6,110 bases of DNA from a virus: the IMG/VR virus record IMGVR_UViG_3300045988_003432, positions 1 through 6,110 of that record; one strand, given 5' to 3'. This document shows positions 1 through 6,110 of the stretch, piece after piece. Positions within the stretch are counted from its first letter, which is position 1; each line of letters opens with the position of its first letter. A program made the translations under genes and the position numbers. Below the pieces are notes generated by a model. That model saw only the letters and a list, made by a program, of their open reading frames with translations, had not been told where the DNA came from and did no database searches.

Positions 1-99
1 TCTATTCGTGCAACCGAATACCTTCAGCGCTGGAAAGAAGTAGTCCAATTCAGTAGCAAGGATTATTCAGACCAGATGGCTGCCCAGTTTGGTATTAAA
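1..99. repeat. Terminal redundancy, copy 1. Identical to 6012-6110 and best explained as the assembly overlap of a circular genome.
   Basis: Base-by-base comparison: tctattcgtgcaaccgaataccttcagcgctggaaagaag...ggtattaaa occurs at 1-99 and again at 6012-6110 with no mismatch. The VP1 reading frame is continuous across the junction. Confidence 0.97.
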
Positions 100-759
100 G
101 CCCCCGAGTACATGGGCAATCATGCTCATTATATTGGAGGCTGGTCTAGCGTAATCAATATCAATGAGGTAGTTAATACTAATCTTGATACCGATTCTTC
201 ACAGGCTTCTATTGCCGGTAAAGGTGTGTCTAGTAATTCAGGCTACACTCTTACTTATGATTGTGGTGCTGAGCATCAGATTATTATGTGTGTATATCAT
301 GCTGTACCTATGTTGGATTGGAATTTAACAGGCCAGGCTCCCCAGTTGACTGTGACTGCTATCTCTGACTTCCCCCAACCTGCGTTTGACCAGCTTGGTA
401 TGCAATCTGTTCCTGCTCTTAATCTTCAGAATAATCCCGGTCGTAATGTTTCCGGCGCTCTTGGCTATAATCTCCGTTACTGGCAGTGGAAATCTAACAT
501 TGATACTGTCCATGCCGGTTTCCGTGCTGGTGCTGCTTATCAGTCTTGGGCTGCTCCTCTTGACGGTTGGCAAGTGTTGACTTCCGCTGGTGCTTGGTCT
601 TATCAGTCTATGAAAATTCGTCCGCAACAGTTGAATTCTATTTTTGTTCCCCAAATTGATGCTGCGAACTGTTCTGTTGCTTTTGACCAGTTATTGTGTA
701 ATGTTAATTTCCAAGTATATGCTGTACAGAACTTGGACAGAAATGGTTTACCTTATTAA
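1..759 (+). CDS. VP1: Major capsid protein VP1 (F-like), 3' portion. It continues from 5040..6011 by circular permutation. Full gene is 1731 nt, 576 aa.
   Basis: The frame is open from base 1 (SIRATEYLQRWKEVVQFSSKDYSDQMAAQFGIKAPEYMGNHAHYIGG...), so the ATG at 76 in the ORF track is internal. Stop TAA at 757-759. The segment R..YLQRW.E......DY.DQ....FG......Y.G...YIGG matches the conserved C-terminal half of Microviridae capsid proteins. The frame (1 mod 3) matches 5040 after subtracting the 6011-nt unit length. Confidence 0.93.
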   Translation, partial: SIRATEYLQRWKEVVQFSSKDYSDQMAAQFGIKAPEYMGNHAHYIGGWSSVININEVVNTNLDTDSSQASIAGKGVSSNSGYTLTYDCGAEHQIIMCVYHAVPMLDWNLTGQAPQLTVTAISDFPQPAFDQLGMQSVPALNLQNNPGRNVSGALGYNLRYWQWKSNIDTVHAGFRAGAAYQSWAAPLDGWQVLTSAGAWSYQSMKIRPQQLNSIFVPQIDAANCSVAFDQLLCNVNFQVYAVQNLDRNGLPY

Positions 760-770
760 TTTGTATTGTT

Positions 771-1211
771 ATGAGAAATTTTGCTTATAAAAATCCCGAT
801 TACATCAAAAATGAGATTGTTCCTCAATTGGTTGAGGATAATCCGTGTTATCAACAGTCTTCATATGATTCAGTTATGTACGATGAGTCTCCAGACGGTG
901 ATTTGATTCAAGCTGATATGACCCAGATTCTGCTGAATCAAGAAAAATATCGTCGTTTGCTTGGCGATATGAATGTTCAGAACATCCTTGCTCAAATGCA
1001 TCCTACTCAATCCACTGTTATGGATGGTATGACTGATGAAGAACGTTTTAATTGCGTTATTTCTCGTCATTGTCAGACTATGTCGGAACGTCAAGCTGTT
1101 CTTCAACAACTGGCTAGCGAGAAGTCAGAATTATCGGCTTATGCTGAATCTTTATTGGCAGAGAATAAGGCAGCGCCGTCTTCGGATTCCGCATCTGCCT
1201 CTGAAGGATAA
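771..1211 (+). CDS. Hypothetical 146-aa acidic protein, possibly a scaffolding-type protein (speculative).
   Basis: ATG at 771, 11 nt after the VP1 stop. The TAA stop (1209-1211) shares its last A with the VP2 ATG (TAATG). It shows the NNT codon bias of neighbouring genes. By my count about 23 D/E versus 11 K/R. No motif I can recognise. Confidence 0.6.
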   Translation: MRNFAYKNPDYIKNEIVPQLVEDNPCYQQSSYDSVMYDESPDGDLIQADMTQILLNQEKYRRLLGDMNVQNILAQMHPTQSTVMDGMTDEERFNCVISRHCQTMSERQAVLQQLASEKSELSAYAESLLAENKAAPSSDSASASEG

Positions 1212-2305
1212 TGGGCTTATTTGATGCTATTGCTTCTTCAGCTGCAAACCTTACCGACAATGTTGTCGGTATGGTTAATCAGAATCATCAGAATAAGGTT
1301 AACCTTCGTATGATGCGTGAACAAAACGCATTTAACGCTGAACAGGCTCAAATTCAACGTGATTGGCAGCAACAAATGTGGGGAATGAACAATTCTTATA
1401 ATTCTCCTGATGCTATGATTTCTCGTGGTTTGAATCCATTTGTTCAAGGTTCAGCTGCTATGGCTGGTTCTAAATCTCCCGCTTCGGGAGGAGCTGCTGC
1501 TACTGCCGCTCCTGTTCCTAGTATGCAAGCTTATAAACCTAATTTTTCTGGTGTATTCCAATCTCTTGCTTCTCTTGCTGAAGCTAAGGCCTCTGAGGCC
1601 GCAGCTGGCGAATCGGGTTCTCGTGCACGTCAGACTGATACGGTGACTCCTCTTTTGTCTGATTATTATAGAGGTCTTACTAATTGGAAAAATTTGGCTA
1701 TTGGTTCTTCTGGTTACTGGAATAAGGAAACAGGTCGTATATCTGCTGCTCTGGATCAGTCTACTGAAGCTCAAAATTTGAAGAATGCTCAGTTTGCTGA
1801 ACGTATATCGGCTGCCCAGGAAACTCAAATCTTACTTAATTCTGAAGCACAACGTGCTATGAATAGATATATGGACCAGAGTCAACAAGCTGATTTATTT
1901 ATTAAGGCACAAACTTTGGTTAATCTTCAGAATCAAGGTGCTCTTACGGAAAAACAGATTCAGACTGAAATTCAGCGCGCTATTCTTGTTTCTGCCGAGG
2001 CTTCTGGCAAGAAAATTGATAATCGTACTGCTTCTGAAACGGCTAATTCTTTAATTAAGGCTGCTAATGCTTCCAATGAATTGCAGTATCGTGATAGTAC
2101 GTATGATTACAAGAATACCAAATTGCGTAAACATACGGAATATAAAACTTCTATGGCAAATCAGAAAGCTGCTGAATATGGAGCGGAATTGGCTCGTAAA
2201 CAAGGCCGTACTCATTATTGGGACTCTGTTTCTCGTGGTCTTGGTTCTGTTGCTTCTGGTTCTGGTAATGTTATTGGCTCATTTCGTATTGGTAATCGTA
2301 AGTAA
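1211..2305 (+). CDS. VP2: Minor capsid / DNA pilot protein VP2 (H-like), 364 aa.
   Basis: The N-terminal block NAFNAEQAQIQRDWQQQMWGMNNSYNSPDAMISRGLNPF resembles the conserved FNA.EAQK.RD.Q..M......Y......M...GLNP signature of Microviridae VP2 proteins. It is followed by an Ala/Ser/Gly-rich linker and a Q/A/E-rich segment likely to form a coiled coil (about nt 1750-1990), as expected for a tube-forming pilot protein. It sits directly after the capsid gene block. Confidence 0.8.
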   Translation: MGLFDAIASSAANLTDNVVGMVNQNHQNKVNLRMMREQNAFNAEQAQIQRDWQQQMWGMNNSYNSPDAMISRGLNPFVQGSAAMAGSKSPASGGAAATAAPVPSMQAYKPNFSGVFQSLASLAEAKASEAAAGESGSRARQTDTVTPLLSDYYRGLTNWKNLAIGSSGYWNKETGRISAALDQSTEAQNLKNAQFAERISAAQETQILLNSEAQRAMNRYMDQSQQADLFIKAQTLVNLQNQGALTEKQIQTEIQRAILVSAEASGKKIDNRTASETANSLIKAANASNELQYRDSTYDYKNTKLRKHTEYKTSMANQKAAEYGAELARKQGRTHYWDSVSRGLGSVASGSGNVIGSFRIGNRK

Positions 2306-2309
2306 TTGT

Positions 2310-2337
2310 ACATTTATTAACATTTGTAAACACATTT
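2310..2337 (+). repeat. Three phased ACATTT direct repeats (2310-2315, 2320-2325, 2332-2337) just after the VP2 stop.
   Basis: Read directly: tgtACATTTattaACATTTgtaaacACATTTata, with 10- and 12-nt spacing, about one helical turn. The sequence is certain but function is unknown. The confidence value refers to a functional iteron role. Confidence 0.3.
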
Positions 2338-2387
2338 ATACTTATTCTCTTTACCCCCGGCTGAAATAGCACACTTCAGGACTAGAA

Positions 2388-2434
2388 GCCCATCGCGGCG
2401 TTTGAGCGATATACACCCGCCGCCCGCGTAGGGC
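2388..2434 (+). other. Stem-loop A (GC-rich).
   Basis: gccc-at-cgcgg (2388-2398) pairs with ccgcg-ta-gggc (2424-2434): 9 bp with a 2-nt internal mismatch. A mutually exclusive alternative pairs gcggcg (2395-2400) with cgccgc (2418-2423). Confidence 0.5.
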
Positions 2435-2446
2435 CTGGTCGAAAAA

Positions 2447-2492
2447 CGGAGCGGAGCGACTTCCTTATAGGAGCGTTCCGCTCCGGTATTTT
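2447..2492 (+). terminator. Candidate intrinsic (rho-independent) terminator for the VP4-VP1-VP2 transcription unit (stem-loop B).
   Basis: 2447-2458 pairs with 2474-2485 (12 bp, one G-U). A2459 is bulged, then 2460-2463 pairs with 2470-2473 around the 6-nt loop cttata. The stem is followed by g-tatttt (2486-2492) and preceded by gaaaaa (2441-2446), so the element looks bidirectional. It lies 142 nt downstream of the VP2 stop. The U-tract is short (4 T). Confidence 0.45.
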
Positions 2493-2493
2493 A

Positions 2494-2535
2494 GCACGGA
2501 GTGCGCAAAGGCAGGTTCTATCTGACCTGCCGTGC
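2494..2535 (+). other. Stem-loop C with a 12-nt asymmetric bulge.
   Basis: ggcaggt (2510-2516) pairs with acctgcc (2525-2531) around the loop tctatctg. gcac (2494-2497) pairs with gtgc (2532-2535), leaving ggagtgcgcaaa (2498-2509) unpaired. An alternative register pairs gcacgg with ccgtgc. Confidence 0.5.
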
Positions 2536-2536
2536 C

Positions 2537-2552
2537 TATACACCCCTGTATA
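2537..2552 (+). other. Small AT-rich hairpin TATACA-CCCC-TGTATA.
   Basis: tataca (2537-2542) is the exact reverse complement of tgtata (2547-2552), with loop cccc. Its 5' arm is part of the second TATACACCC direct-repeat copy. Confidence 0.4.
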
Positions 2553-2555
2553 CAT

Positions 2556-2570
2556 CCACTTGTTAATTAA
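2556..2570 (+). promoter_or_regulatory. Candidate plus-strand origin nick motif CCACTTG/TTAATTAA (speculative).
   Basis: CCACTTG followed by an AT-only palindrome TTAATTAA. As I recall it, the phiX174 origin core is CAACTTG^ATATTAATAAC, nicked after the G by the HUH protein A. The heptamer differs at one base and AT-rich DNA follows in both. The element sits next to a hairpin in the only large non-coding region. Confidence 0.2.
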
Positions 2571-2597
2571 GCGAAGCCCCTAGTTGCGTACGAAGTA

Positions 2598-2620
2598 AAT
2601 TCGAGTTATCCTCTCGAATT
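2598..2620 (+). other. Stem-loop D (perfect 8-bp stem).
   Basis: aattcgag (2598-2605) pairs with ctcgaatt (2613-2620) around the 7-nt loop ttatcct. No T-run follows. It is enclosed by a possible 7-bp long-range pairing, agttgcg (2582-2588) with cgcaact (2643-2649). Confidence 0.45.
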
Positions 2621-2686
2621 CTCCATCTCTTGTCTATAAACGCGCAACTCACACTCTACGGTATAATCTAAAAAAAACAGTTTTCT

Positions 2687-2717
2687 TTTGGTTTGATGAA
2701 AATAATCTGTATATTTG
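2687..2717 (+). promoter_or_regulatory. Candidate Bacteroides-type promoter (-33 TTTG / -7 TAnnTTTG).
   Basis: TTTG at 2687-2690, then a 19-nt spacer, then TATATTTG at 2710-2717. This fits the TTTG ... TAnnTTTG architecture described for Bacteroides sigma-AB promoters. It lies about 50 nt upstream of the first ATG-initiated ORF after the gap (2768). It was the only exact TAnnTTTG I noticed in the intergenic regions. Confidence 0.45.
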
Positions 2718-2767
2718 CTCCCAGTTAGAAGTTACAATCGTTATTAACACTTAAAATTGTTACAATT

Positions 2768-2962
2768 ATGCAGAAATTTATTATTTCAGTTAAGGAAAAA
2801 ACTACGGGTCGCGATGCTATTTCGCCTTATATCGTTAATTCTCTCGATGGCCTTGGAAATTATTCTGAACGAGTTTCTCCGTTGGGCCTTATTGTTATTG
2901 TGGATTCAATTAAAGAAGAGAACTATTTCGTTGAACTTAAAACTCAAAGTGATGAAAAGTAA
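2768..2962 (+). CDS. Hypothetical protein, 64 aa.
   Basis: ATG at 2768, first gene after the candidate promoter. NNT-biased codons like the other genes, roughly neutral charge, and no recognisable motif. The stop TAA is at 2960-2962. Confidence 0.5.
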   Translation: MQKFIISVKEKTTGRDAISPYIVNSLDGLGNYSERVSPLGLIVIVDSIKEENYFVELKTQSDEK

Positions 2963-3035
2963 TAGTATTTGGAAGATTGTAATTGGAGCTGTTTCCGCTG
3001 CACTAGGCTATATTTTAAACGCTATTGGTCTATGA
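2952..3035 (+). CDS. Possible 27-aa single-pass membrane peptide (MKSNSIWKIVIGAVSAALGYILNAIGL), a holin-like candidate.
   Basis: ATG at 2952, overlapping the last codons of the 64-aa ORF. The stop TGA at 3033-3035 overlaps the ATG (3032) of the peptidase gene as ATGA, which suggests translational coupling. 14 of 27 codens end in T, matching the genome bias. It has a short K-containing N-terminus followed by about 19 hydrophobic or small residues. It is too short for statistical support. Confidence 0.3.
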   Translation: MKSNSIWKIVIGAVSAALGYILNAIGL

Positions 3036-3340
3036 ATAGTGCTCTTATGGATTTTTTTGAACACCTGCTGTGTTTCAACTTGCATTTTTCGGTAACAAGT
3101 GCTAAGCGTTCTATTGCTGAAAATAAAGCTGCTGGAGGTGTTCCTAATTCACAACATTTGGTTGGAGAAGCTGTTGATATTAAACCCTATGGTTCTACTA
3201 CTTATAACCGGTTGCTTGAACATATTCATAACTATTCAGATAGCGCTCATGTGTTTGATCAACTGATATTGTATCCTACGTTTATTCATATTTCGTTTGG
3301 TGATCGTAACCGTCGCCAAGTCATTGATACCCGTAAATAA
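3032..3340 (+). CDS. Peptidase M15-family zinc D-Ala-D-Ala carboxypeptidase-like cell-wall hydrolase (endolysin candidate), 102 aa from the first ATG.
   Basis: The sequence contains FSVTSAKRSIAENKAAGGVPNSQHLVGEAVDI, with an exact SxHxxGxAxD motif (S40-D49). H42 is at nt 3155-3157 and D49 at 3176-3178, giving H-x6-D. Downstream are EHIH (ExxH-like, 3218-3229) and FIHISF (His at 3287-3289) as candidate third ligands. The ORF-track start at 2969 is a TTG that adds a Cys/Trp-rich 21 aa. ATG 3032 is the first ATG. The protein is shorter at the N-terminus than typical M15 phage endolysins. Confidence 0.85.
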   Translation: MNSALMDFFEHLLCFNLHFSVTSAKRSIAENKAAGGVPNSQHLVGEAVDIKPYGSTTYNRLLEHIHNYSDSAHVFDQLILYPTFIHISFGDRNRRQVIDTRK

Positions 3341-3342
3341 TT

Positions 3343-5022
3343 ATGAAATTTTCTCCCGATTTGCTTAAGGCTGTTGATCATTGTCAGCATCGTTCTTTTA
3401 TTACAAATAGGTATAATGGTGCACGCATTGCGGTAGATTGTGGTCAATGCGATTATTGTATCCATAAGAAAGCCCAGAAAGCGTCCATGCGCGTGAAGAC
3501 CGCTGGAAGTGCTTTTAAGTATTCTTATTTTGTTACACTTACTTATGATAATGAGCATGTTCCCCTTATGTCTTGTAAGGTTTTGTATAGTGATTATGAT
3601 GATGCTATAGGCATTTCGGGAGATATTCATTTTGGTCATGAATATCATAAGTATATCCCTGTTTCTGAATATCAATGTGATGATAACTCCATATTGCGTC
3701 ATATATTCTTTGAGCAAGTACAAGGCACAGTGCCGTTTGACCGTGAGATTAAGGAATATGTTCCTGTTAAGGATAATTGGTTTCTTAGTATGGATGCTAT
3801 TCGTAGTTTTATCCATAAGACGCAATCGGTTGACAAAACGGATTATCCCGCTTCTGGACAATATGGCCGTGATAACCTTATTCCCTTTTTAAATTATGCT
3901 GATGTTCAGAATTATATTAAAAGATTACGTAAATATTTGTATAAACAATTAGGTTCTTATGAAACATTACATTTCTACGCTGTCGGTGAGTACGGCCCTG
4001 TTCACTTCCGTCCGCATTATCATATCTTATTATTCACAAACTCGGAAGAAGTCTCAAAGGTATTACGATACTGTCACGATAAGAGTTGGAAATTCGGTCG
4101 TTCAGATTTCCAGATTGCCCGCGGTGGAGCTTCTTCATACGTTTCGAGTTACGTTAACAGCCTTAGTGCTGCTCCCTTATTATATCGCTCATGCCGCGCG
4201 TTTAGACCCCGCTCGAGAGCTTCTATCGGATTCTTTGAGAAAGGTTGCGATTTCGTGGAAGGTGAAGAGCCTTATGCGCAGATTGAACAAAAAATCGATT
4301 CTGTCGTTAATGGAAGAGTCTATGCCTTCAGCGGCCTTAGTATTCGGTCAACTCCCCCCATGTCGTATATCCGTACCTTATTGCCCCGATTCTCGTCTGC
4401 TCGCAATGACGATGGTATTGCGATTGCTCGAGTTCTTCGCGCTGTACACTCAACGCCAAAAAGAATTGCAAAATACGGATTCATTGACTATAAACAGGAT
4501 TCAGTTTTGAGTCTTGTTCGTACTTATTATCAATATCTTAAGGCTAACCCTATTCTTACTGACGATGACAAGATTATATTACATTCTGCTAGGTGTCTTA
4601 CTAGGTTCTGTAACAGTTCTAGTGATGTCGATATTGAGTCTTATATTAATAAACTATATCGGCTATTCTTATATGTCTCTAAATTCTTCCGTAATTGGCA
4701 TTTGCCTGCCTTTGGCTGTAATATTGATTCTTACACCGGTCGTATTATGTTTATTCTTAAAAAAGGTATAGAATATGAGAAGAAAAAGAATTATGAAAGC
4801 TTACGAGATGCATATAACCTTCGTTCCCAGTACCCGGAAATATCAGATTGTATGTTTGCGCTGCCTCAGAACGGGCAAGAGATTGATGTCTTGCAGGCCG
4901 TATCAAGTGAAACGATTCACCTCCTTGAACAACTCCGGTGCCGTAGTGCAACATTCTGTCGTGATATGATTAAGCACAAGAAGCTTAATGATGCTAATAA
5001 TATTTTCAACCGTATGGTTTAA
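3343..5022 (+). CDS. VP4: Replication initiation protein VP4 (HUH rolling-circle endonuclease, phiX174 A-like), 559 aa.
   Basis: N-terminal Cys/His cluster HCQH...CGQCDYCIH. Motif 1 is FVTLTY (nt 3529-3546). Motif 2 is HUH: RPHYHILLF, with HYH at 4015-4023. Motif 3 has two tyrosines three residues apart, SYVSSYVNS (Y266 at 4138-4140, Y270 at 4150-4152), as in phiX174 YVAKYVNK. The ATG is 2 nt after the peptidase stop. Confidence 0.93.
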   Translation: MKFSPDLLKAVDHCQHRSFITNRYNGARIAVDCGQCDYCIHKKAQKASMRVKTAGSAFKYSYFVTLTYDNEHVPLMSCKVLYSDYDDAIGISGDIHFGHEYHKYIPVSEYQCDDNSILRHIFFEQVQGTVPFDREIKEYVPVKDNWFLSMDAIRSFIHKTQSVDKTDYPASGQYGRDNLIPFLNYADVQNYIKRLRKYLYKQLGSYETLHFYAVGEYGPVHFRPHYHILLFTNSEEVSKVLRYCHDKSWKFGRSDFQIARGGASSYVSSYVNSLSAAPLLYRSCRAFRPRSRASIGFFEKGCDFVEGEEPYAQIEQKIDSVVNGRVYAFSGLSIRSTPPMSYIRTLLPRFSSARNDDGIAIARVLRAVHSTPKRIAKYGFIDYKQDSVLSLVRTYYQYLKANPILTDDDKIILHSARCLTRFCNSSSDVDIESYINKLYRLFLYVSKFFRNWHLPAFGCNIDSYTGRIMFILKKGIEYEKKKNYESLRDAYNLRSQYPEISDCMFALPQNGQEIDVLQAVSSETIHLLEQLRCRSATFCRDMIKHKKLNDANNIFNRMV

Positions 5023-5039
5023 TTTAATTTTTATAAACT

Positions 5040-6110
5040 ATGAGTGATTTTAATCCTTTGGACCGTGCGAAAATTCCTACCCATCGGTCCTCTTTCGACT
5101 TGAGTTCGAAAAAGTTGTTTACAGCTAAAGTTGGTGAAATTCTTCCTTGCTATTGGCAGATTGCTATTCCTGGTAACAAGTATCGTATTTCCTCTGACTG
5201 GTTTACCCGTACTGTTCCGGTTAACACTGCTGCTTATACTCGTATTAAGGAGTATTATGATTTCTACGCTGTGCCGTTACGTTTGATTTCTCGTGCTCTT
5301 CCACAGGCATTTACTCAGATGACGGACTATATGACTAGTGCGGCTAGCTCTACTACGAATACATCTGCACTTACTTCTGTTCCTAGTGTTACTCAGAGCA
5401 CTTTTAGTGCGTTTTTTCAGACGGCTAATGCTGGTGACCAGCCTAATGTCCGTGACGATGCAGGTCTTCCTATTGTCTATGGTTCTTGTAAATTGCTTGA
5501 CATGCTTGGTTATGGTTCTATGATTGCTTCTACTAATACAGCCAAGGCTGCTATTACTAAAAAATATCTAGGTGTTGACAATCTTGGTGACGCTTCTAAC
5601 CCTTTGGTTTATCAGACTTCGCAGACTGTCAATGCTCTTCCGTTCCTTGCTTATCAGAAGATTTATTATGATTTTTTCAGCAACAACCAATGGGAAAAGC
5701 ACAAAGCTTACGCTTATAATGTAGACTATTGGTCCGGATCTGGTAATATTGGATTGGTTACGGATATGGTCCAGCTGCGTTATGCAAATTATCCGAAGGA
5801 TTATTTTATGGGCATGCTTCCTTCTTCCCAGTATGGTCCTGTAGCTGCTCTTCCTTCTACTGTTTCTTCTATTTCTTCCAATTCTGTAATTCTTCCTACT
5901 AACTCAACCTCTCTTCGTGCCGCTGGCTCTGATACTGCTAATGTTAATTTATCTTCTTCTAATACTTTAGGAGGCGATATTCTTACTATTAACTCTAACT
6001 TATCCGCCCTCTCTATTCGTGCAACCGAATACCTTCAGCGCTGGAAAGAAGTAGTCCAATTCAGTAGCAAGGATTATTCAGACCAGATGGCTGCCCAGTT
6101 TGGTATTAAA
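5040..6110 (+). CDS. VP1: Major capsid protein VP1, 5' portion. It is open to the window end, and the unique part ends at 6011 and continues at base 1.
   Basis: ATG at 5040 is preceded by an in-frame TAA (5034-5036), and I found no stop in a hand translation through 6110. The translation contains HRSSFDLSSKKLFTAKVGEILPCYWQIAIPGNKY, IKEYYDFYAVPLRLI, LPFLAYQKIYYDFF and YPKDYFMGMLPSSQYG. These match the conserved Microviridae capsid blocks (S.FDLS...T...G.L.P...LPGD; FFVP.R; LP..AY..IY.DY; KDYFT..LP..Q.G). It is absent from the supplied ORF track only because it lacks an in-window stop. Confidence 0.93.
   Translation, partial: MSDFNPLDRAKIPTHRSSFDLSSKKLFTAKVGEILPCYWQIAIPGNKYRISSDWFTRTVPVNTAAYTRIKEYYDFYAVPLRLISRALPQAFTQMTDYMTSAASSTTNTSALTSVPSVTQSTFSAFFQTANAGDQPNVRDDAGLPIVYGSCKLLDMLGYGSMIASTNTAKAAITKKYLGVDNLGDASNPLVYQTSQTVNALPFLAYQKIYYDFFSNNQWEKHKAYAYNVDYWSGSGNIGLVTDMVQLRYANYPKDYFMGMLPSSQYGPVAALPSTVSSISSNSVILPTNSTSLRAAGSDTANVNLSSSNTLGGDILTINSNLSALSIRATEYLQRWKEVVQFSSKDYSDQMAAQFGIK
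6012..6110. repeat. Terminal redundancy, copy 2 (identical to 1-99).
   Basis: See 1-99. The unit length implied is 6011 nt. Confidence 0.97.

Follow-up and report, generated by a model that had tools for sequence, protein, structure and literature searches.

Where does a Bacteroidota-associated microvirus start the synthesis of its complementary strand? The question is raised by a 6,110-nt stretch of viral DNA (IMG/VR record IMGVR_UViG_3300045988_003432, positions 1 to 6,110; hereafter the window). An earlier note had drawn three back-to-back stem-loops, A, B and C, at 2388-2535 of its plus strand, and proposed them as the origin of the complementary (minus) strand on the packaged single-stranded DNA (ssDNA). 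To our knowledge, no cis-acting replication element has been defined for the abundant Bacteroidota-associated gut microviruses. Likewise, we know of no microvirus outside the phiX174/G4 group for which the start of the complementary strand or the nick site of the replication protein (Rep) has been established. In the present analysis, the hairpins proved to belong to a larger conserved element. They may well be the upstream module of a two-part cis-acting replication region which acts as folded plus-strand (packaged) DNA, a reading to which we give a little under an even chance. Within it, a complementary-strand origin is the leading explanation for the hairpin cluster.

Fold and covariation of the element

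Folded as ssDNA, the plus strand of 2380-2545 has a minimum free energy (MFE) of -42.7 kcal/mol (z = -5.05), and none of 200 shuffled sequences was as stable. The minus strand folds worse (-39.0 kcal/mol, z = -3.63). RNA parameters also give a significant fold (z = -3.98). The lowest ssDNA folding energies of the genome are those of the 150-nt windows starting at 2351 (-34.8) and 2401 (-33.9), and the next best is -25.0. The GC content is 0.56-0.59 at the cluster versus 0.24-0.46 in adjacent windows. The three consecutive stem-loops of the earlier note are therefore real and form the most stable ssDNA structure of the genome, but the bounds given for them cover only the upstream half of a larger element (about 2376-2657).

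Relatives were gathered by BLAST and three pattern scans of IMG/VR, giving about 130 microvirus genomes with the conserved block. In an alignment of 61 circular relatives, used to score conservation along the whole genome, 2371-2670 stands out as the long stretch that is conserved best, with values of 0.86-0.98 per 30 nt compared to a genome mean of 0.81 and to 0.48-0.61 in the hypervariable flanks. By BLAST, the block is about 80% identical in genomes whose coding DNA is only 73-79% identical. This non-coding block of about 280 nt consists of two modules, a 5' module (about 2388-2545) and a 3' module (2559-2657), separated by a variable linker (about 2546-2558) which is a hot spot of insertions and deletions in relatives. 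The orientation of the element is constant and always that of the genes. No tRNA was found in the element, and no family of Rfam 15 reaches its threshold there, the top match being mir-383 with 19.5 bits versus a threshold of 70. An open reading frame (ORF) of 57 aa on the minus strand (2382-2555) was rejected as a gene, its frame being shifted or interrupted in most relatives: the length of the region modulo 3 is 1 in 22, 2 in 22 and 0 in 12 of them, and 41 of 56 have internal stops. No description of the element was found in the literature searched.

Pair counts for the 5' module were taken from 85 non-redundant homologues (alignment A4). Five helices, H1, the crossing stem, H2, C1 and C2 (Table 1), are registers alternative to those first drawn; they are 99.5-100% paired, with compensatory changes above both controls. 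Among the pairs of H1, 2395:2407 occurs as G:C (68 sequences), A:T (11) and C:G (4). Pair 2418:2428 of the crossing stem occurs as C:G (74), T:A (6) and G:C (5), and H2 varies at 2423:2433 (C:G 81, G:C 3, A:T 1) and 2425:2431 (C:G 82, T:A 3). H2 and the crossing stem (2418-2434) would either combine into a compact H-type pseudoknot or exclude each other as two alternative hairpins. In C1, pair 2496:2502 is A:T in 61 and G:C in 24, with zero wobble. In C2, compensatory changes occur at 2514:2527 (A:T 45, G:C 40) and also at 2511:2530, 2512:2529 and 2515:2526. The registers drawn in the earlier note for A and C did not hold up. The MFE register of A (GCCC 2388-91/GGGC 2431-34 with CGCGGCG/CGCCGCG; 88.8% paired) and the outer stem of C (GCACGG 2494-99/CCGTGC 2530-35; 85.5% paired) break at variable columns, and their compensatory counts are at the level of the shuffled control.

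Hairpin B can be kept as drawn. Its long form has one compensatory pair, 2454:2478 (G:C 73, A:T 5), and pair 2455:2477 is broken in 24 sequences. Nevertheless, covariation supports the local hairpin B' (2470-75/2479-84) at least as well as the long form; its pair 2471:2483 is G:C in 46 and A:T in 33. In a divergent group of relatives (L012, L016, L018, L042, L078 and L266), a second mini-hairpin, GCG(A/T/C)AGC, takes the place of B' before the unpaired motif GGTAYTTTAGC. The two structures are equivalent only if the stability of the DNA mini-hairpin is what matters. A closing helix, P0, is weakly indicated. Its pair types are T:A (29) or T:G (20), C:G (36) or T:G (11), A:T (47) and G:C (49), so its variation is one-sided (wobble) only, and it is missing in some lineages. 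The unpaired motif TATACACCC is found in the genome only in the two copies that belong to the 5' module.

The 3' module is predicted to fold into a three-way junction. It is 97.7% paired in 107 sequences, where 11 of the 20 pairs are compensatory. Over 14 diverse sequences, 99.3% of the cells are paired and 17 of 20 pairs are compensatory, in an alignment that was fitted to the covariance model and is thereby biased toward the structure. The closing pair of mini-hairpin M2 covaries (GCGAAGC, CCGAAGG, ACGAAGT), and CCGAAGG is the M2 of many relatives. The covariance model R1 detected the 3' module in all six tested relatives with a Rep of only about 28% identity, always in the spacer after the pilot-protein gene. 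The 3' module appears to be the constant core of the element, conserved across the wider family.

A probable plus-strand DNA fold and exchangeable modules

Does the element act as DNA or as RNA, and on which strand? Double substitutions outnumber one-sided ones in both modules, with 200 versus 5 in the 3' module and 141 versus about 22 in the 5' module. G:T cells make up 21 of about 2,580 paired cells in the 5' module and 5 of about 2,000 in the 3' module, one fixed T:G pair set aside. Because G:T is a mismatch in DNA, this direct switching between Watson-Crick pairs, with very few G:T intermediates, fits a DNA fold, unlike typical RNA helices. As for the strand, mini-hairpins of the form N-C-G-N-A-G-N' (C-GNA-G) occur four times in 290 nt of the plus strand versus 0.39 expected (P = 0.0002). 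None is present on the minus strand of the element, and the other 5.7 kb of the genome contain only two. Wobble variation, where it occurs, takes the T:G form on the plus strand; only P0 and the terminal P1 pair, which is T:G in 8 and C:G in 5 sequences, show it. A strand test comparing G:T with A:C counts gave 21 versus 8 in the 5' module and 5 versus 12 in the 3' module, and wobble is too rare in most helices for these counts to assign a strand.

In a microvirus, the plus strand alone exists as bulk ssDNA. DNA mini-hairpins of the GCGNAGC/GCGNNAGC type are extraordinarily stable, far above their RNA versions, and bind single-stranded DNA-binding protein (SSB) poorly (review PMC13037366). They sit at the primer sites of G4, St-1 and alpha3, at ssiA of RSF1010 (CCGAAGG) and at the N4 promoters (GCGGAGC) (PMC13037366). 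In the sequences compared here, GCGAAAGC was confirmed inside the annotated G4 primer, and GCGAAGC in the F-G spacer of phiX174. The scarcity of G:T, the restriction of the mini-hairpins to the plus strand and the presence of the same motif class at G4 and phiX174 favour a fold of plus-strand DNA.

The two modules differ in their distribution. The 5' module is carried by 120 loci. It is missing, or other modules are present, at seven or eight loci that have the 3' module; five of these loci come from complete circular genomes. They have a short hairpin with the motif TTCCGAAAGTA, or a different module of about 150 nt. In L014, the other module of about 150 nt lies between the 5' and 3' modules. 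A covariance model of the 5' module gave zero matches in the distant relatives, so that homology was undetected there. The relatives L284 and L285 nonetheless share the pair of TATACACCC motifs about 130 nt apart, in the layout hairpin-TATACACC, about 130 nt, CTATACCCC-3' module. The three-hairpin 5' module is clade-specific. The earlier note had expected the hairpin architecture to be kept where the sequence differs, which is true in part. The ssDNA fold of greatest stability occupies the corresponding place, immediately ahead of the 3' module, in four or five of six distant relatives, where it has no homology to the 5' module; in some complete genomes, the 5' module is absent or replaced.

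Some further features were seen next to the modules of relatives. The sequence TTCCG(A/G)AAGTA recurs upstream of the 3' module in L250, L252, L258, L265, L261 and L271, genomes that are without the three hairpins. It mostly comes after a run of T and might belong to an alternative module. In L261, L277, L284 and L285, canonical terminator-like hairpins follow directly after the stop codon of the pilot-protein gene, some of them capped by GCGAAGC and followed by T runs (e.g., CCCTCCGCGAAGCGGAGGG-A4T8). Next, and still upstream of the structured modules, L261 and L277 have a promoter-like TAtcTTTG and one more small ORF. This unit is absent from the window.

Proposed complementary-strand initiation and competing explanations

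The minus origin adjoins the plus origin in the intergenic region of f1/M13, and the single-strand origin (sso) adjoins the double-strand origin (dso) in rolling-circle plasmids. An exchangeable module of stable hairpins on the 5' side of a constant core matches both layouts. The hairpins are therefore taken as a candidate module for complementary-strand initiation, and the 3' junction, by the same match, as a core for Rep or for the priming enzyme. For other microvirus clades, minus-strand origins have been proposed at conserved intergenic hairpins that show compensatory changes (PMC9865509). In the proposed mechanism, the GC-rich hairpins and C-GNA-G mini-hairpins of the 5' module would remain folded and free of SSB on the SSB-coated incoming viral strand. 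The folded module would then offer its unpaired invariant motifs (TATACACCC twice and GGTAYTTTAGC) to the host priming machinery, which could be primase acting directly (as in G4), a PriA primosome or RNA polymerase (as in M13 and plasmid sso). This machinery would lay the primer for complementary-strand synthesis. The 3' module might be the recognition and nick site of Rep (VP4) or the core priming site. The scheme builds on conservation, covarying helices, modularity, an orientation matching the genes, mini-hairpins on the plus strand only and DNA-like substitutions, all observed here; the steps that involve proteins we infer.

Several points weigh against this explanation. Some genomes that appear complete do without the 5' module, which is therefore not indispensable or has substitutes. 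Strictly Watson-Crick covariation would fit a cruciform in the double-stranded replicative form equally well, and GAA triloops also cap the canonical terminator hairpins of L261 and L277, so the triloop argument is not exclusive to DNA. Known origins that are used by primase or built as a primosome assembly site (PAS) less typically have a compact pseudoknot and numerous invariant unpaired bases, which are commoner in RNAs or at specific protein sites. Hairpin B followed by GGTATTTTAG is placed where the terminator of a single long transcript is expected. The element has no sequence similarity to the origin regions of G4, phiX174 and M13 that were compared. Moreover, judged by sequence, either module could be the minus origin and the other the plus origin.

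A second explanation, that the hairpins are part of the plus-strand (rolling-circle) origin, seems unlikely. The hairpins and the repeated units of a hairpin plus TATACACCC would then be binding, enhancer or termination sites for VP4, a Rep of the HUH type. They would do their work as cruciforms in the supercoiled replicative form or else on the strand that is displaced, with the nick in the adjacent 3' module. The conservation of the 3' module along with Rep over large distances agrees with this, as does its layout, which is like that of HUH nick regions: a hairpin (P3), a pyrimidine linker and, downstream, the conserved unpaired CTYGTCYAT. We take TCTTG..ATA to resemble the nick motif of phiX174 and pC194, as a lead only. 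Strictly Watson-Crick covariation would be expected were both strands to fold, and the recurrence of the TATACACCC pair in L284 and L285 also speaks for a Rep site. The sole other phiX-like origin motif of the genome, CTTATATTAATAAACTATA inside VP4 (4639-4658), is a weak lead only. Aligned with the plus-origin core of phiX174, CTTGATATTAATAACACTATA, it agrees at 19 of 21 positions when two gaps of 1 nt are allowed (P = 0.02 versus shuffles), lies in a stretch of high synonymous-site conservation (0.94) and has no equivalent in distant relatives. However, the 5' module is missing or replaced where Rep and the 3' module are closely related, which fits a host-directed module better, and the mini-hairpin motifs occupy the plus strand only. 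No significant similarity to the plus origins of M13 or phiX174 was found, and the presumed likeness of the 3' module to the gpII-binding region of M13 was not significant (P = 0.36). The near absence of wobble bears on a different explanation, also unlikely, in which the element works as RNA. Hairpin B with the U-rich GGUAUUUUAG would be the intrinsic terminator of a single genome-length transcript, and the hairpins around it would protect the 3' end of the mRNA; alternatively, the whole block would function as a structured non-coding RNA or as a switch. The one promoter of the Bacteroidetes type follows closely on the downstream side (2687-2717), which would make the element the 3' end of the transcription unit. 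B' with its T-rich tail GGTATTTTAG was flagged as terminator-like, the T-rich motif is invariant, and no other terminator follows VP2 in the window. RNA-like traits are the crossing helices at 2418-2434 and the large number of invariant unpaired bases, and the fold is significant with RNA parameters, as given above. On the other hand, the U tract is interrupted and begins 2-3 nt past the stem, and the single terminator-like match does not exceed chance (0.6 expected). L277, L284 and L285 keep the modules further downstream although VP2 is directly followed by a canonical terminator. The 2-bp GCGNAGC that stands in for B' in one lineage is unstable as RNA, with a far lower melting temperature (PMC13037366). 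G:U pairs are nearly absent at covarying positions, and there is no matching Rfam family. The earlier note had also allowed for a switch-like RNA with alternative registers. Only the two crossing helices at 2418-2434 speak for it, and the near-absent G:U and the triloop mini-hairpins argue against RNA.

The exchange of modules could also reflect mobility, with the 5' module as a small non-autonomous, selfish insertion flanked by the 9-nt direct repeats TATACACCC (at 2410 and 2537), which would spread by recombination among microvirus genomes and persist through transfer, not through any advantage to the phage. The region is indeed a mosaic of interchangeable modules with hot spots of insertion and deletion, and the module is far more alike between genomes than their genes are. 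Such a cassette is very unlikely, though. No genome with an "empty site" (H1, one repeat and the 3' module) was found, and the repeats were rejected as a target-site duplication. The helices covary, which implies long-term selection on structure, and in L284 and L285 the TATACACCC pair flanks a non-homologous insert of similar length, as expected of a functional motif. No copies were seen outside microviruses, neither in plasmids nor among the matches listed from sampled host contigs; the matches listed in this 17-mer scan of host genome contigs (at least 120) were all due to chance, so that the scan is uninformative on host copies and prophages. An integration site, i.e., a dif-like attP for the host recombinases XerC/XerD, possibly used as folded ssDNA as in CTXphi, is extremely improbable. 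Such a site has been proposed for the proviruses of Bacteroidetes microviruses, which are flanked by dif-like sites and whose gene order puts attP between the pilot-protein gene and Rep-proximal ORFs, in the intergenic region considered here (PMC3091885), and the linker has TGTATA and TTGTTAATT, loosely like a dif spacer and a XerD arm. Yet no 28-mer of the element beats the background against the bacterial dif consensus, which is not specific to Bacteroidetes (the best matches, 20/27, lie elsewhere), the TGTATACA segment is deleted in many relatives and, as a weak point, no integrated copy was among the matches listed in the host-contig scan. Finally, the pseudoknot 5' module and the family-wide three-way junction might represent, instead of any known kind of origin, a new class of structured nucleic-acid element of Bacteroidota microviruses acting via its tertiary fold. 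This class would comprise either an ssDNA structure for a host or phage factor, or a trans-acting non-coding RNA (for host take-over or counter-defence), with the 5' module as a mobile cassette. Taken together, these forms are rather improbable.

The analysis provides a covariation-based, coordinate-level model of the element of about 280 nt that more than 120 genomes share, with a 3' core that can be recognised down to about 28% Rep identity. The model is a defined substrate for priming, nicking and SSB-footprinting experiments, and the two covariance models may serve as markers for annotating these genomes and setting their orientation. The enrichment of GCGNAGC-type motifs with covarying closing pairs is independent comparative support for the notion that such motifs mark ssDNA initiation sites.

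Genome setting and comparable systems

The window represents one circular microvirus genome of about 6,005 nt, bases 1-105 being repeated at 6006-6110. All genes lie on the plus strand (Table 1), in the order described for the Bacteroidetes-associated "Alpavirinae" proviruses (PMC3091885). The nearest database relatives are faecal microviruses of dog, human and lemurs.

Table 1 Features of the structured element and genes of the window
Feature	Position	Strand	Remarks
P0, tentative closing helix	2376-79/2435-38	+	TCAG with CTGR; would enclose H1 and the H2/crossing-stem unit
Hairpin H1	2392-96/2406-10	+	ATCGC/GCGAT, 9-nt loop GGCGTTTGA; 99.5% paired
TATACACCC, copy 1	2410-2418	+	Unpaired invariant motif, immediately 3' of H1
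Crossing stem	2418-20/2426-28	+	CGC/GCG; 100% paired
H2	2422-25/2431-34	+	GCCC/GGGC, loop GCGTA; 100% paired
Hairpin B	2447-2485	+	Long form, 16 bp
Alternative to B: mini-hairpin	2451-57	+	GCGGAGC
Alternative to B: local hairpin B'	2470-84	+	GGAGCG-TTC-CGCTCC
GGTAYTTTAGC	2485-2495	+	Unpaired invariant motif between B and C1; always some hairpin ahead
C1	2494-97/2501-04	+	GCAC-GGA-GTGC; 100% paired; C-GGA-G triloop mini-hairpin in the window
C2	2510-16/2525-31	+	GGCAGGT/ACCTGCC
Extension of C2	2505-07/2533-35	+	GCA/TGC
TATACACCC, copy 2	2537-2545	+	Before the variable linker
3' module	2559-2657	+	Three-way junction
Mini-hairpin M1	2571-77	+	GCGAAGC; ahead of P1
P1	2582-89/2642-49	+	Encloses M2 and P3
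Mini-hairpin M2	2590-96	+	ACGAAGT
Hairpin P3	2598-2605/2613-20	+	
CTTGTCTATAAAC	2629-41	+	Conserved unpaired stretch
CACAC	2650-54	+	Conserved unpaired stretch
A-run	2670-77	+	Right boundary, outside the element
Bacteroidetes-type promoter	2687-2717	+	TTTG ... TAtaTTTG; after the A-run; right boundary, outside the element
Major capsid protein (Phage_F)	5040 to 759	+	Spans the junction
ORF	771-1211	+	Same position as the internal scaffolding protein annotated in distant relatives
Pilot protein VP2	1211-2305	+	
Spacer	2306-2767		462 nt; holds the structured element
Small ORF	2768-2962	+	
Peptidase M15	Between small ORF and VP4	+	
Rep protein VP4	3343-5022	+	Pfam REP_ORF2-G2P match

The promoter at the right end of the spacer is the single match to the Bacteroidetes-type consensus in the window, both strands having been scanned. 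At least one such match also occurs in 62 of 200 shuffles, so the promoter is called by consensus only. Downstream of it, the small ORF and the next 100 nt or so are unusually conserved, with a third-position conservation of 0.86 versus 0.66-0.79 in the other genes. This conservation at 2768-3060, which includes synonymous sites, suggests overlapping constraints. An ORF of 27 codons (2952-3035) overlaps the stop of the small ORF, ends at the likely ATG (3033) of peptidase M15 and encodes the hydrophobic peptide MKSNSIWKIVIGAVSAALGYILNAIGL. It is near-invariant among relatives (0.99 at the positions read as "third" in the annotated frame). Its product is a candidate holin-like lysis partner, and 2969 (TTG), the annotated start of peptidase M15, is probably incorrect. 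In ssDNA structure, 1151-1350, at the junction of ORF 771-1211 and VP2, ranks second in the genome (z = -4.6, -24.5 to -25.0 kcal/mol). The sequence CAACTGATATTG at about 3259 was dropped, as it is not conserved in the 61-relative alignment. A CRISPR array was observed on two IMG/VR contigs (L259:11813-13026 and L262:5466-6679); its repeat, GTCACACCCTACGTGGGTGTGTGGATTGAAAC, is present 19 times and resembles those of type I-C. Of the 18 spacers, at least 12 have matches in genomes of this microvirus clade, with spacer 8 falling within the 3' module (..TGTCTATAAACGTTGAACTCACAC..). The array could point to the host.

Among known systems, the origin of G4 (and of St-1, alpha3 and phiK), which is recognised by DnaG, is similar to the element in being an intergenic cluster of stable hairpins on the packaged strand of a microvirus. 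Both have DNA mini-hairpins of the GCG(N)NAGC type, which in G4 lie inside the annotated primer (PMC13037366). Stable packaged-strand hairpins with such a mini-hairpin in a non-coding spacer characterise single-strand initiation (ssi) sites of the G4 type and are present here. Resistance to SSB would be a further common trait, observed for G4 and expected for the element. In sequence, however, the mini-hairpin class is all that the two have in common: no homology to the G4/St-1/alpha3 origin with its three hairpins I-III and conserved primer start was detected, and blastn-short against G4 3750-4150 gave only 9-nt chance matches. The element also differs in the phylum of its host, in its larger, two-part build, in its crossing helices and in its four GNA triloops, and priming is presumed rather than established as in G4. 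Its position is different as well, following the pilot-protein gene instead of lying between the F and G genes.

In phiX174, the n' (PriA) primosome assembly site is located in the F-G spacer. Here, too, a hairpin region of the viral strand starts the complementary strand, and the spacer contains GCGAAGC. It has the 9-mer AAGCGAAGC in common with the 3' module, which is at chance level for that length. Unlike the element, the PAS is a single hairpin of about 55 nt. The hairpins of reekeekee- and roodoodoo-microviruses are conserved intergenic DNA hairpins with compensatory changes, proposed but unproven as minus-strand origins (PMC9865509). They belong to other clades, have other sequences and consist of one or two simple hairpins compared to the two-part element of about 280 nt. 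In RSF1010, the hairpin of ssiA/ssiB capped by CCGAAGG, the same heptamer as M2 in many relatives, supports recognition by primase (PMC13037366). These plasmid signals are read by the plasmid-encoded primase RepB' and have no other similarity to the element.

The minus origin of f1/M13 (hairpins B and C) and the sso of rolling-circle plasmids are similar to the element in organisation. The element has no significant similarity to the intergenic region and origin of M13 (P = 0.36), and the hairpin-embedded promoter mimic for RNA polymerase with the motifs RSB and CS-6 that marks such origins was not recognised in it, the only match to the Bacteroidetes promoter consensus lying outside. We presume a weak likeness between TAGCRC and the CS-6 motif TAGCGT of ssoA. 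The match of VP4 to Pfam REP_ORF2-G2P is a point of likeness to f1/M13. As in f1/M13 and in plasmids with an sso and a dso, a structured, orientation-specific and exchangeable ssDNA module is placed immediately 5' of a constant core. Moreover, sso cassettes span 150-300 nt, can be dispensed with and are strongly conserved even where the replicons themselves differ. The element shares with them an orientation-specific, structured and exchangeable non-coding module of that size, which would likewise be adjacent to the plus origin.

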